In this document: one piece after another, positions 6,980 through 14,811 of the stretch
How the letters are laid out: every line of letters starts with the position of its first letter
Position numbering within the stretch: the first letter of the stretch is position 1
Source of the DNA: a virus
Lineage: Duplodnaviria; Heunggongvirae; Uroviricota; Caudoviricetes
DNA length: 14,811 bases
Strand: one strand, 5' to 3'
Virus record (IMG/VR): IMGVR_UViG_2534681835_000032
Location: 1 to 14,811 of that record
Translations under genes and position numbers: made by a program
The notes under the pieces: model-generated
What the model was told of the DNA's origin: nothing
The model's database searches: none
The model's input: only the letters and a program-made list of their open reading frames with translations

Positions 6980-7057
6980 GCACCTCATAAAACGGGTGCC
7001 GGGATTTGCACCCCGATGATCACTAGAGCGCATAACCGCGCCAAAGCGGTTTTTTTA
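6980..7057 (+). ncRNA. Candidate ~77-nt small RNA / leader transcript upstream of the Rha gene
   Basis: Delimited by the promoter at 6945-6973 and the terminator at 7034-7057; internal hairpin GGGTGC(6994-6999)/GCACCC(7008-7013); carries copy 1 of the bipartite motif TTTGCAC...TCACTAGAG in the single-stranded stretch before the terminator. Confidence 0.35.
7034..7057 (+). terminator. Candidate intrinsic terminator (AACCGC-GCCAAA-GCGGTT + T-run)
   Basis: 6-bp GC-rich stem with 6-nt loop followed by a run of T residues; short stem, so moderate confidence. Confidence 0.4.
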
Positions 7058-7222
7058 TGCGTAAAGCGCAGCCACATTCAGATTATGGTGGGGCGTATGG
7101 GGCCGTTTTCGGGCGGGCCGGATTCTCTAGTGACCGGTAGTGCAAACCCTGTACGTCTCACCACCCATGAGATTTGCACCTCCGGTGGCGAGTTTACCAA
7201 CTTATCACTAGAGGCTGCCATC

Positions 7223-12271: not shown

Positions 12272-12466
12272 ATGAGATATGACGATGTTAAACCATGTCC
12301 GTTTTGTGGTTGTCCATCTGTTACGGTGAAAGCAATTTCAGGATATTACCGGGCAAAATGCAACGGATGCGAATCCCGAACTGGCTATGGTGGAAGTGAA
12401 AAAGAAGCACTCGAAAGATGGAATAAACGAACTACTGGAAATAATAATGGAGGTGTTCATGTATAA
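12272..12466 (+). CDS. ralR: RalR / Lar (restriction alleviation; type I toxin of the RalR-RalA pair), 64 aa
   Basis: MRYDDVKPCPFCGCPSVTVKAISGYYRAKCNGCESRTGYGGSEKEALERWNKRTTGNNNGGVHV, recognised as RalR; in-frame upstream ATGs at 12260 and 12233 are alternative starts; no clear SD. Confidence 0.75.
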   Translation: MRYDDVKPCPFCGCPSVTVKAISGYYRAKCNGCESRTGYGGSEKEALERWNKRTTGNNNGGVHV

Positions 12467-12647
12467 AATAACTGCCACTATTGAAAAAGAAGGTGGCACT
12501 CCTACTAACTGGACAAGATATTCAAAATCTAAATTAACGAAATCAGAATGCGAAAAAATGCTCTCAGGGAAAAAAGAAGCAGGCGTGTCCAGAGAGCAGA
12601 AAGTAAAGCTGATAAATTTTAATTGCGAGAAACTTCTGTCCTCGTGA
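12459..12647 (+). CDS. ydaC: Small protein YdaC-like, 62 aa
   Basis: MYKITATIEKEGGTPTNWTRYSKSKLTKSECEKMLSGKKEAGVSREQKVKLINFNCEKLLSS; SD GGAGG 6 nt upstream of ATG 12459; overlaps the ralR stop by 8 nt. Confidence 0.65.
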   Translation: MYKITATIEKEGGTPTNWTRYSKSKLTKSECEKMLSGKKEAGVSREQKVKLINFNCEKLLSS

Positions 12648-12753: not shown

Positions 12754-13035
12754 ATGAATCTTGTGACACTCAAAACGTGGGGAAAACTCAGATATCCGGA
12801 TAACCCACCATCAATATCAACGCTGAGACGATGGGCAAGGAATGGAAACATTTATCCTGCACCTGAACTACACGGGAGGAGTTACAGGGTGGTTCCGGAA
12901 GCTTTCTATATCAACCCCAATAAGGTTGATACCGATATAACACACCATCAGCCTAATGGGCGACAAGGGAGAGACAGTCCGTTACTGGAGAAGTTAAAAC
13001 ATGCAGCGGAAAAAATACGATCCCAATTTGCCTAA
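12754..13035 (+). CDS. xis: Excisionase (lambda Xis-like), about 93 aa
   Basis: N-terminus LVTLKTWGKLRYPDNPPSISTLRRWARNGNIYPAPELHGRSYRV resembles the lambda Xis winged helix; SD AAGAGG 7 nt before ATG 12754 (ATG 12748 is an alternative); overlaps int as in lambda. Confidence 0.7.
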   Translation: MNLVTLKTWGKLRYPDNPPSISTLRRWARNGNIYPAPELHGRSYRVVPEAFYINPNKVDTDITHHQPNGRQGRDSPLLEKLKHAAEKIRSQFA

Positions 13036-14077
13036 AAACTTAACATATCGAAGGAGGGACAAAGCATATTACTGGCGCAACCCTCTGACGAAAGAAGAAT
13101 TTACACTAGGTAAAATTTCAAGAAGAGATGCAATCGCGCAGGCAATTGAAGCAAATCACTATATATACAAAAACTACTCTACTGCTGCCTTAATTGAAAA
13201 ACTTAAAGGGTTCGACTCATTTACTATGGCAGACTGGATTGAACGTTACAAAACGATTCTTATAAGGAGAAAAGTGTCCAGAAATACTTATAAAATTCGG
13301 GTAAATCAACTGGAGACAATAAAAGAAAAATTGGGAGAGATTTTACTGACAGAAATAACCACTCGCCATATTGCCGAGTTTCTTGATTTGTGGATTGAAG
13401 GAGGGAAAAACACAATGGCAGGATCAATGCGTTCTGTGTTGTCTGATATGTTTCGTGAGGCCATTGTTGAAGGACGTATATCTCAAAATCCAGTAACGCC
13501 AACAAGAGCACCGAAAATAGTAGTTACAAGAGAACGACTGAAACTAAAGACATACAACTGCATCAGGGAGGCAGCAGATCAACTTCCGGCATGGTTCCCA
13601 TTAGCTATGGATTTAGCCCTTGTAACAGGACAACGTCGCGAAGACATAACGAATATGCGGTTTAGTGATATTTATGATGATCGTCTCCACATCAGGCAAA
13701 TTAAGACAGGAATGATGATTGCTATCCCCCTGTCACTCAGCCTTCCTGTCGCTGGTCTACGGCTTGGTACAGTAGTTGAACAGTGCCGCCTGGTAAGCCG
13801 GGGAGATTATCTAATCAGTGCCGGGATTAGAAAAAACAGCCCTGACGGCAGCATTCACCCGGATGGCCTGACAAAAAAATTTGTCGCAGCCAGAAAATTA
13901 ACAGGTATCCAGTTCAGTGAAAACCCACCAACTTTTCACGAGATCAGAAGCCTGGCTGGACGATTGTACAAAGAAACATATGGAGAAGAATTTGCTCAGC
14001 GTCTACTTGGCCACACATCGGAGAAGACAACAAAAATGTATCTTGATGAGAGAGAAAAAACGTACTTACTGCTCTGA
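13001..14077 (+). CDS. int: Lambda-type tyrosine integrase, 358 aa
   Basis: Collinear with lambda Int (N-terminal arm-binding domain [28 protein letters not shown]; catalytic region [34 protein letters not shown] with the presumed catalytic Tyr). Confidence 0.9.
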
Positions 14078-14225
14078 TTTTAACGTAAATGGATTGTTAA
14101 ATGTATTTTGGTTGTGATATAACCAAAAAAGACCGGAATACAGAAATTCGAGTAAATTTCGGGGAATTTCGGGGAGACGCTTGCAACTGATTGATTTTAA
14201 ATACAATTAAAAAAAGACCGAGTAC
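14078..14225. other. attL-like junction: phage P-prime arm with arm-type repeats, and putative core overlapping the 3-prime end of sdsR
   Basis: Region between the int stop and the first recognisable host sequence; contains tandem AATTTCGGGG repeats and two near-copies of AAAAAAGACCG(A/G)(A/G)TAC. Exact crossover point not determinable from one junction. Confidence 0.45.
14144..14174 (+). repeat. Tandem direct repeats AAATTCGAGT / AAATTTCGGGG / AATTTCGGGG (candidate arm-type Int-binding sites)
   Basis: Three adjacent 10-11 bp repeats (two perfect) 67-97 bp downstream of the int stop, in the position of lambda P-prime arm sites. Confidence 0.35.
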
Positions 14226-14311
14226 GATTCCTGTATTCGGTCCAGGGAAATGGCTCTTGGGAGAGAGCCGTGCGCTAAAAGTTGGCATTAATGCAGGCTT
14301 AGTTGCCTTGC
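14209..14311 (-). ncRNA. sdsR: SdsR (RyeB) RpoS-dependent small RNA, ~103 nt
   Basis: Minus-strand sequence GCAAGGCAACTAAGCCTGCATTAATGCCAACTTTTAGCGCACGGCTCTCTCCCAAGAGCCATTTCCCTGGACCGAATACAGGAATCGTACTCGGTCTTTTTT matches SdsR as recalled from memory; terminal hairpin plus U-run at the 3-prime end. Confidence 0.75.
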
Positions 14312-14350
14312 CCTTTAAGAATAGATGACGACGCCAGGTTTTCCAGTTTG
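14312..14350 (-). promoter_or_regulatory. sdsR promoter region with sigmaS-type -10 (TCTATTCT)
   Basis: Minus-strand TCTATTCT ends ~6 nt upstream of the SdsR 5-prime G; consistent with the known RpoS dependence of sdsR. Confidence 0.4.
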
Positions 14351-14400
14351 CGTGCAAAATGGTCAATAAAAAGCGTGGTGGTCATCAGCTGAAATGTTAA

Positions 14401-14440
14401 AAACCGCCCGTTCTGGTGAAAGAACTGAGGCGGTTTTTTT
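14401..14440 (+). terminator. Strong intrinsic terminator (likely RyeA 3-prime end; possibly bidirectional for the yebY-like gene)
   Basis: Long GC-rich interrupted stem (14401-14414 with 14421-14436) followed by a run of T residues on the plus strand; A-run upstream gives weaker terminator character on the minus strand. Confidence 0.65.
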
Positions 14441-14469
14441 ATTGGAAATCAAAAGGCTATTTTAGGTAA

Positions 14470-14811
14470 TTAACAGAGTTTTTCAGCTCGTTCTATAAAC
14501 GGTGCCAGACTCATTTTTTCGCCGGGATTGTTAGGATCATCAATCTGAATCACCGAAATGGGTTGGGCTTTAGTCTTCCCACTGGCAACTTCCTTTTGTG
14601 CGATATCGTTTAAAGGATACTGCACGAGGGTACTTGGGTTAATGACATACAAAGCATTACCCGGTCTGCAAGTCAGCATCACCTCTTCGCGATTAAACGC
14701 CCATTTGTCTTTACCCACTTCAAAACGACTGACGGTAATCACCTGCGGTGCAGCCAGCGCCGCTGCAGAACTGGTGAGTAACAGAAACGTCAGAATACTT
14801 TTTTTCATCAT
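14470..14811 (-). CDS. yebY: Secreted DUF2511-like host protein (YebY-like), 113 aa
   Basis: [40 protein letters not shown]... with a signal peptide; start codon at the window edge; in E. coli the sdsR/ryeA locus lies beside yebY. Symbol assigned from memory and context. Confidence 0.6.

Follow-up and report, generated by a model that had tools for sequence, protein, structure and literature searches.

Near its right-hand end, at positions 14078-14242, the 14,811-nt stretch of phage DNA analysed here (the window; IMG/VR record IMGVR_UViG_2534681835_000032) very probably carries the P' arm and core of an attL junction (B-O-C'-P' in lambda terms, from right to left), formed where a prophage with a lambda-type integrase (Int) entered the terminator hairpin of the small RNA gene sdsR. 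The parts of this anatomy, namely the core, the crossover interval and the arm sites, are highly probable. The initial annotation had described two near-copies of an arm of the SdsR terminator with three tandem repeats between them, and all of these sequences were found in place. The outer copy, at the core, is indeed related to that arm. The description of mere resemblance falls short, however, as the Rfam match and the stem identify the outer copy as the DNA that encodes the SdsR 3' arm and U-tail. The inner copy lies on the far side of the repeats, next to a candidate promoter, and its role is weighed below.

Matching E. coli 2014C-3061 at 100% identity, the window contains the int-proximal junction (attL) of a lambdoid prophage of about 44 kb in sdsR/ryeA. 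All 5426 complete E. coli genomes match the window from 14208 rightwards, and 228 of them also have int and the arm. The right neighbour is yebY, while pphA, the usual left neighbour of sdsR, lies about 44 kb away, past the tail genes. The Rfam SdsR match runs at full length across the junction, with the crossover 16-26 nt from the SdsR 3' end. The terminator stem consists of 10-bp inverted arms (14216-14225 and 14233-14242) around a 7-nt loop. The phage is shown to bring its own replacement for the 3' arm and U-tail of this terminator, and the replacement is the outer copy.

Comparison with the far junction and with free-phage attP, suggested by the initial annotation, located the exchange. 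The unoccupied attB (L003) reads ATAAAAAGA GACCGAACAC GATTCCT GTATTCGGTC and the attL of the window TTAAAAAAA GACCGAGTAC GATTCCT GTATTCGGTC. The far junction of the source genome (L004, ~29540-29560) reads ...GACCGAACAC GATTCCT GTTTTCGTCA, which makes it the reciprocal hybrid, and the attP of a phage record (L001) reads ...GACCGAATAC GATTCCT GTTTTCGTCA. This record, PP818812 (97% identical), matches the window to 14239 and then continues into a different arm (P) beside tail-fibre genes, and therefore shows attP. As attL is phage-type up to 14223 and host-type from 14235, the exchange took place within ACGATTCCTGT. Sequence comparison thus shows the two arms of the terminator hairpin to be the predicted inverted core half-sites, with exchange in or beside the 7-nt loop, and the likely overlap is the 7-bp GATTCCT at 14226-14232, the terminator loop itself.

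The arm supplied by the phage in the window strain (GAGTAC) introduces an A.C mismatch into the SdsR terminator stem (14216-14242), with a folding energy of -11.9 kcal/mol versus -15.8 kcal/mol for native E. coli. Most related prophages carry GAATAC, which pairs perfectly. The mismatched terminator may allow more read-through into antisense int. In two loci with an Int 94% identical (L007 and L008, 3710-3745), attL is GACCAACAT-GATTCCT-GTATTGGGTC, with both half-sites altered and the inner copy unchanged; the host sdsR may be divergent there, or the junction may be a mosaic.

We collected about 250 related loci from IMG/VR scans with three Ints (those of the window, of the Flyfo phage and of a Serratia), from two phage records, from genomic Yersinia, Serratia and Pantoea loci and from one DNA-pattern scan. 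An Int search of genome contigs returned just two near-identical loci. The Ints fall into four clades that are mutually just 46-50% identical, and all of them target sdsR; in one Rahnella locus (L174, Int 64%) sdsR is not adjacent to int. The survey of other sdsR prophages recovered the arrangement seen in the window, with the attL layout in 199 loci representing 139 distinct versions.

The layout of the repeats is retained throughout these attL-type loci. In the window, AATTTCGGG occurs at 14155 and 14165, and the third unit, AAATTCGAGT, is degenerate. Across the loci, A/T-TTCG is constant in each unit, and the next three bases are specific to the lineage and altered in all three units together, giving the variants GAGG, GGAC, GGAA, GTGT, GGGG and GATA. 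The variable triplet follows a stretch of seven residues that lies between NLT[YF]R and WRNP in the Int N-domain: RSRKTFA and RNRNAFY are found with GGAC, (K/N)ASKSFF with GGAA, KND(R/K)AFY with GAGG, and HRYKSYY and AKYKTYY with GTGT. The distant hosts Serratia and Salmonella have both GGAC and R(S/N)R(K/N)xF in common, and Yersinia and Pantoea have both GTGT and xxYK(S/T)YY in common. This covariation makes the strongest case for reading the repeats as arm-type sites, and together with the lambda-like geometry, the Pfam arm-binding domain of Int and the conservation in about 200 loci it bears out the likeness to lambda P' arm sites that had been proposed. On these comparative grounds, the three tandem A/T-TTCG-NNN units are shown to be the predicted arm-type sites for the Int N-terminal domain. 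Units of the TTCG type are found in the P arm too.

Two variations of the repeats were seen. In a Kosakonia prophage (L181), at least two of the three repeats read TTTGG-TGG rather than TTCG-NNN, so that the otherwise invariant CG is altered in concert. The number of repeats ranges from 2 in a Pantoea locus (L173) to 4-5 TTTCGATAA units in two Yersinia-type loci (L248 and L242), consistent with slippage between tandem units.

Between the repeats and the core lies a perfect WATCAANNNNTTR, one of two matches in the window, at the position of the lambda H' site for integration host factor (IHF). By analogy with lambda, IHF would bend the arm such that Int molecules on the repeats reach the core sites. 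Two points weigh against this anatomy as drawn. The IHF site is a consensus match only, and in the Yersinia/Serratia lineages the best match lies elsewhere and on the other strand. In addition, the mapped exchange interval is 11 bp, and the 7-bp overlap is inferred from it.

Table 1. Features of the attL junction and its flanks in the window; distances are counted from the core centre (14229).
Feature	Position	Strand	Evidence or description	Distance	Lambda counterpart
int	13001..14077	+	lambda-family tyrosine integrase, 358 aa, reads towards the junction; open reading frame and RefSeq annotation
Candidate sigma-70 promoter	14094..14123	+ (RyeA direction)	TTGTTA 14094-14099, 18 bp, extended -10 TGaTATAAC 14115-14123; inferred
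Inner copy	14125..14141	+	A6 (14125-14130) and GACCGGAATAC (14131-14141); distal P' arm element	88-98 bp
Outermost arm-type Int site AAATTCGAGT	14144..14153	+		76-85 bp	P'3, 73-83 bp
Middle arm-type Int site AAATTTCGGGG	14154..14164	+		65-75 bp	P'2, 63-72 bp
Inner arm-type Int site AATTTCGGGG	14165..14174	+		55-64 bp	P'1, 52-62 bp
IHF consensus AATCAATCAGTTG	14184..14196	-	directed away from the core	33-45 bp	H', 32-44 bp, same orientation
ryeA/sraC antisense RNA (Rfam-covered part)	14205..14349	+	Rfam, 176 bits
Outer copy	14209..14225	+	A-run 14209-14215 (SdsR U-tail) and phage-derived core half-site GACCGAGTAC 14216-14225 (terminator 3' arm)		C'
sdsR (ryeB) small RNA	14209..14308	-	Rfam SdsR_RyeB 14308->14209, 113 bits; last ~17 nt phage-supplied
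Strand-exchange interval ACGATTCCTGT	14224..14234	.	attL/attR/attB/attP comparison
Host core half-site GTATTCGGTC	14233..14242	+	SdsR terminator 5' arm		B

The inner and outer copies share AAAAAAGACCG, a direct repeat with a spacing of 85 that is exact over 11 nt (14125-14135 in the inner copy, 14210-14220 in the outer), and with one 1-nt indel allowed the similarity grows to 17 versus 16 nt (AAAAAAGACCGGAATAC and AAAAAAGACCGAGTAC). A likeness by chance in A-rich DNA might be invoked since the region is AT-rich and the exact common word is just 11 nt long. Yet the 14.8-kb window has two occurrences of AAAAAGACCG where 0.04 would be expected, a count of 2 that one of 200 shuffles reached, and about 200 loci carry the element at this same distance. 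A chance origin, to which we gave practically no weight, is already refuted by these comparative data.

That the inner copy could be part of attP, as the initial annotation had considered, is supported by its presence in each free-phage or attP-type sequence (L001, L005, L006, L036, L068, L083 and L147); six attP-type loci with a full int have it, and so does ZC-S1_prp. Its distance to the core is 83-85 bp in all lineages, and its position is held within +/-1 bp across the four Int clades, where the intervening spacer cannot be aligned between clades. In three clades it directly follows the int stop codon, and in the fourth, that of the window, 47 bp separate the two. The consensus over the four clades is G-R-C-N-G-R-(A)-N-T-A-Y. 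The element reads GACCGGAATAC in E. coli and most Salmonella, GACCGAATAC in several Salmonella types, GACCGAATAT in Yersinia/Serratia and Flyfo, GACCGGATAC in Pantoea and GACAGGATAT in clade B; a MAFFT alignment puts the 11-nt variants out of register. Since the inner copy varies independently of the arm repeats, it is core-like rather than arm-like. The comparison shows it to be a fixed and conserved component of attP, and that it is functional there is, on the same evidence, very probable.

The same data bear on whether the inner copy is a functionless relic, either a core half-site left by an earlier integration or a product of an arm-building duplication. The site is a known insertion hot spot, true P'-arm fossils flank unoccupied sites, and the copies can recombine, as one prophage lacking exactly the 85 bp between them demonstrates (see below). 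Free phages nevertheless carry the inner copy, its position is fixed to +/-1 bp in clades of 46-50% identity despite the unalignable spacer, and in int-less fossils, where the prophage is dead, it has decayed. Because of this decay we regard it as a selected part of the live attachment site. A relic is thus improbable, and the degenerate remnant of an earlier integration that had been envisaged does not hold for the inner copy; the true remnants lie on the other side, flanking unoccupied attB sites.

In the prophage with the 85-bp deletion (L035, IMGVR_UViG_2728369554_000022), int is intact. The deletion removes all arm sites and the IHF site and rebuilds a perfect SdsR terminator, and the prophage is presumably locked in. 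Such a deletion is absent from the best 30 of 221 carrier E. coli genomes, all of which gave undeleted two-piece matches.

Resembling the host half-site plus an A-run and lying 3 bp past the outermost arm site, the inner copy could be an accessory docking site for the core-binding and catalytic part of an arm-bound Int, which would be parked on this target mimic prior to the capture of attB. A precedent exists in lambda, where one Int held by the P' arm has a free core-binding domain until attB is captured (PMC4880445). Such a docking site, a role as target-mimicking sequence that the initial annotation had also listed, is the function that we favour for the inner copy, but only tentatively, as several observations count against it. 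The inner copy of the E. coli and most Salmonella lineages (GACCGGAATAC) contains a 1-nt insertion, and that of clade B (GACAGGATAT) is just 7/10 identical to the core. If the same domain bound the core and the inner copy, such insertion and divergence should be poorly tolerated. Covariation between inner copy and core is weak: L218 and L221 covary (inner GAGTAT, core GAGTAC, host ATACTC), while L247 alters the inner copy only (inner GGCCGAGTAT, core GAATAC), and L007/L008 (core GACCAACAT) and the window alter the core only. As these cases conflict, we make no claim that the inner copy tracks the core.

Two other proposals for the inner copy were rejected. A fourth, inverted arm-type site does not follow the triplets of the lineages, and its TTCG is broken in most of them. 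Position 10 of the element (C/T) does not track the host half-site: T is common in all lineages outside clade A regardless of host, and the host-side half-site of an int-less Yersinia-type junction (L243) ends in C. As a sign of RNA pairing on the plus strand, a bias towards G.U wobble was sought among substitutions in the inner copy, and the count gave ~9 transitions that preserve wobble pairing and 2-3 that are disruptive; base composition alone predicts 7:3, so the test is uninformative.

Another conceivable use of the element concerns transcription of sdsR. On the minus strand the inner copy reads GUAUUCCGGUC followed by U6. In a read-through RNA this stretch might base-pair with the 5' arm and loop of SdsR and, as a back-up terminator arm, halt transcription ahead of an antisense run into int. 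The minimum-free-energy fold of a 131-nt read-through RNA does pair the SdsR 5' arm and loop with the inner copy. The segments 14136-14147 and 14227-14238 form an inverted repeat of 12 nt with 92% complementarity. Most lineages have an A-run ahead of the inner copy, a substantial share of K-12 transcripts reads through the sdsR terminator (PMC6610125), and the terminator of the window strain is weakened, as described above. Nonetheless, the loop would span ~90 nt and the local hairpin would form first, the fold is no better than that of shuffled sequence (z = -1.2), and clade B has three mismatches. Clade B, Flyfo and L240 are without the U-tract, and the int stop codon abuts the element there. 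A terminator scan found nothing at the inner copy, which also has no local 5' arm. We consider this role very improbable, more so than a relic.

Immediately upstream of the inner copy is a sequence that resembles an extended -10 promoter element, with a predicted start at about 14129-14132. TGNTATAAY has its sole match in the 14.8-kb window at this place, and TGTG(A/G)TATAA is invariant in all clade-A lineages and kept in int-less fossils of K. oxytoca and E. cloacae. A consensus scan of 13900-14480 for promoters and terminators found nothing, under rules that exclude TATAAC and the mismatched SdsR stem; the candidate -10 went unflagged because its position 6 is C. From sequence alone, we judge a promoter in the arm to be an even proposition. 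The extended -10 would probably let the prophage restart transcription of the antisense RNA RyeA after the native ryeA promoter is displaced, which integration moves ~44 kb away to the far junction. There (L004, 29540-29600) the displaced promoter faces the P arm of the prophage and the end of the tail-fibre genes.

Unoccupied sdsR sites of other genera, obtained through YebY homologues, indicate where the native promoter came from. In the pphA-sdsR spacer of E. coli (L003 ~1400-1500), Citrobacter (L178), Kosakonia (L182) and Leclercia (L185), with pphA adjacent in all, the flanks of the empty site align with the last ~65 nt of clade-B int (H-K-N-L-T-M-T-K-K-Y-L-D...E-Y-V-M-V-stop), followed by a decayed arm. 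Scored by Smith-Waterman alignment against 500 dinucleotide shuffles, these older fossils reach z = 4.4, 8.4, 13.2 and 7.6, respectively. Younger int-less fossils show three repeats in a Leclercia-like locus (L184, z = 46), two repeats in E. cloacae (L187) and the clade-A outer block only in K. oxytoca (L177, z = 7.2). Two Yersinia-type junctions (L235 and L245) show the same pattern. Five aligned fossils (L184, L187-L189 and L177) preserve the -10-like block amid a progressive loss of the repeats and of the inner element, and all seven aligned fossil flanks keep the -10-like hexamer as the inner element and the repeats decay. An integrase fossil at the native sites is thus very probable.

In E. 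coli K-12, the ryeA -10 mutated by Choi et al. is TATGGT within TGTTATGGTT (PMC6610125 primers). Clade-B int ends with the identical TGTTATGGTT-TAG, and TATGGT corresponds to the final V-M-V codons of the clade-B integrase. The 5' end of the 272-nt RyeA lies 6-8 nt downstream of this -10, inside the inner-element fossil (RyeA promoter and length from PMC6610125). The direction of transfer was from phage to host, because the phage copy encodes the conserved Int C-terminus including the region of the catalytic tyrosine, whereas the host copy is frameshifted and non-coding. We infer that the 3' end of an integrase gene gave rise to the native ryeA promoter and that phages of today bring their own equivalent, which fits the report that PhiW104 lysogeny alters the 5' part and the level of ryeA (PMC7380047). 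To the left of the fossil, at ~35 nt, pphA (L003 711-1367) is oriented like a nin-region gene of a prophage at this site. Its product is homologous to the Ser/Thr phosphatase of lambda, and pphA too may be a relic of a prophage.

A rival view is that the inner copy and the upstream extended -10 form a portable promoter and 5'-end cassette for ryeA, such that the element would be conserved for transcription or RNA function and not for Int binding. This is compatible with our reading of the rest of the arm. TGaTATAAC is unique in the window and invariant in clade A, and in other lineages a TGn-hexamer precedes the inner element by 1-9 nt. Clade-B int ends TGTTATGGTTTAG, the K-12 ryeA -10 sits in TGTTATGGTT (L003), and the K-12 RyeA 5' end falls in the fossil of the inner element. 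The -10 is kept in 7/7 aligned fossil flanks, where the arm repeats are decayed or lost, and PhiW104 lysogeny changes the 5' part of ryeA according to a review (PMC7380047). Set against this, fossils retain the -10 without the inner element, so that host RyeA function is independent of it. Moreover, the gap between -10 and inner element ranges over 1-9 nt among lineages, initial transcribed regions are seldom so strongly conserved, and the promoter scan gave no hit. As an account of the inner copy, the cassette therefore appears rather unlikely, slightly more so than the docking site.

Taken together, the outer P' arm could be a dual-purpose cassette, both a recombination scaffold and a replacement promoter. 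The prophage would rebuild the SdsR 3' end as well as the RyeA promoter, and hence both members of a bidirectional, toxin-antitoxin-like pair; in E. coli, Citrobacter, Kosakonia and Leclercia, the native ryeA promoter and 5' region would be a domesticated fossil left by an ancient prophage at this site, and the inner copy the target-mimicking docking site of live phages. We hold this combined scheme, including the rebuilding of both RNAs, to be about evenly balanced between true and false. If the fossil result is true, the tail of an integrase gene became the promoter of an antisense RNA, and each new lysogen would then swap in its own version, which should change SdsR/RyeA/pphA regulation.

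The map provides a complete and testable attachment site for a widespread family of enterobacterial prophages. The joint change of arm triplet and Int motif amounts to a natural specificity experiment and could guide the re-targeting of lambda-type integrases. The extra conserved half-site, which lambda does not have, may bear on how the attP complex holds the Int subunits that capture naked attB.

The window covers the early-left end of a Rac-like lambdoid prophage, with RecE, RecT, RalR/RalA and the excisionase followed by int. Its Int is 39% identical to lambda Int and 42% identical to HK022 Int across 97% of its length, and Pfam assigns PF09003 (arm-binding), PF22022 and PF00589 to close homologues. 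The family occupies ~4% of complete E. coli genomes, O157:H7 and O55:H7 strains among them; its other hosts are Salmonella, Klebsiella/Enterobacter-type bacteria, Serratia, Yersinia and Pantoea. Further Rfam matches in the prophage are the sok antitoxin RNA (151-325), isrK and C4 antisense RNA, adjacent at 6980-7168, and RalA, the antitoxin of RalR (12465-12643). PP818812.1 (L001) is named 'Actinobacillus phage vB_Apl-pPE4'; it is 96.7% identical to the E. coli prophage across int and att and bears attP for the enterobacterial sdsR terminator, and the named Actinobacillus host looks doubtful. In many Yersinia-type loci (L169 and L233-L248), attP-like P'-core-P junctions occur within long contigs, which suggests tandem prophages or permuted phage genomes.

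Among known systems, the closest likeness is to the P' arm of lambda attP/attL. Both have a heterobivalent Int whose arm-binding domain is PF09003, and a short overlap flanked by inverted core half-sites. Three tandem arm sites and one IHF site, here a candidate, lie between the core and the int stop, at distances that differ from those of lambda by 1-3 bp (Table 1). Unlike in lambda, the core is the perfect terminator hairpin of a small RNA, the arm (A/T-TTCG-NNN) and core (GACCGAATAC) sequences are unrelated to those of lambda, the arm holds a conserved promoter-like element, probably a promoter, and an extra conserved core-like half-site lies past the outermost arm site. At the corresponding 88-98 bp lambda is already in the int coding sequence, its P'3 overlapping the int stop codon. 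A search for a distal core-like site in lambda yielded only CAATTTTGT, a 6/7 match in the opposite orientation that is not significant. In the lambda record (NC_001416, L190), the GenBank feature 'int 4' is placed at 27814-27854, inside the int coding sequence and not over P'1-P'3 (27784-27815), which looks like a coordinate error in the record.

Phages such as P4, P22 and HP1 target tRNA or tmRNA genes at their 3' ends, for which they bring a substitute. As in these phages, the core is a symmetric stem-loop with a 7-nt loop and the phage copy restores the 3' end of an RNA gene, which thereby survives integration. The target here is instead the Rho-independent terminator of an Hfq-dependent small RNA, and the locus is bidirectional, so that integration severs the antisense gene from its promoter.

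The ryeA/ryeB locus was reportedly identified by Balbontin and colleagues in 2008 (J Bacteriol 190:4075) as an insertion hot spot of Salmonella. The prophage of the window shares this target with PhiW104 and other hot-spot elements; it differs from them as an E. coli Rac-like lambdoid prophage, with an Int ~73% identical to its Salmonella relatives. For the hot-spot elements, two reports (PMC7380047, PMC3333887) place the attachment site within ryeA, in the final ~23 bp of ryeB (sdsR), with lysogeny altering the 5' part and the expression of ryeA. Arm sites that overlap a promoter are also reported for attL/intS of KplE1 (CPS-53; Panis et al. 2010, PMC2951348). There, as proposed here, the DNA of the recombination arm also serves transcription control. 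The promoter is in that case the one of the integrase itself, whereas in the window int is directed towards the arm, and a host antisense small RNA would be the product of the candidate promoter. In mechanism and membership, the junction belongs with the lambda-type attachment sites, at a hot spot (ryeA/ryeB) that was already known, and the extra element would make it a variant if its function is shown.

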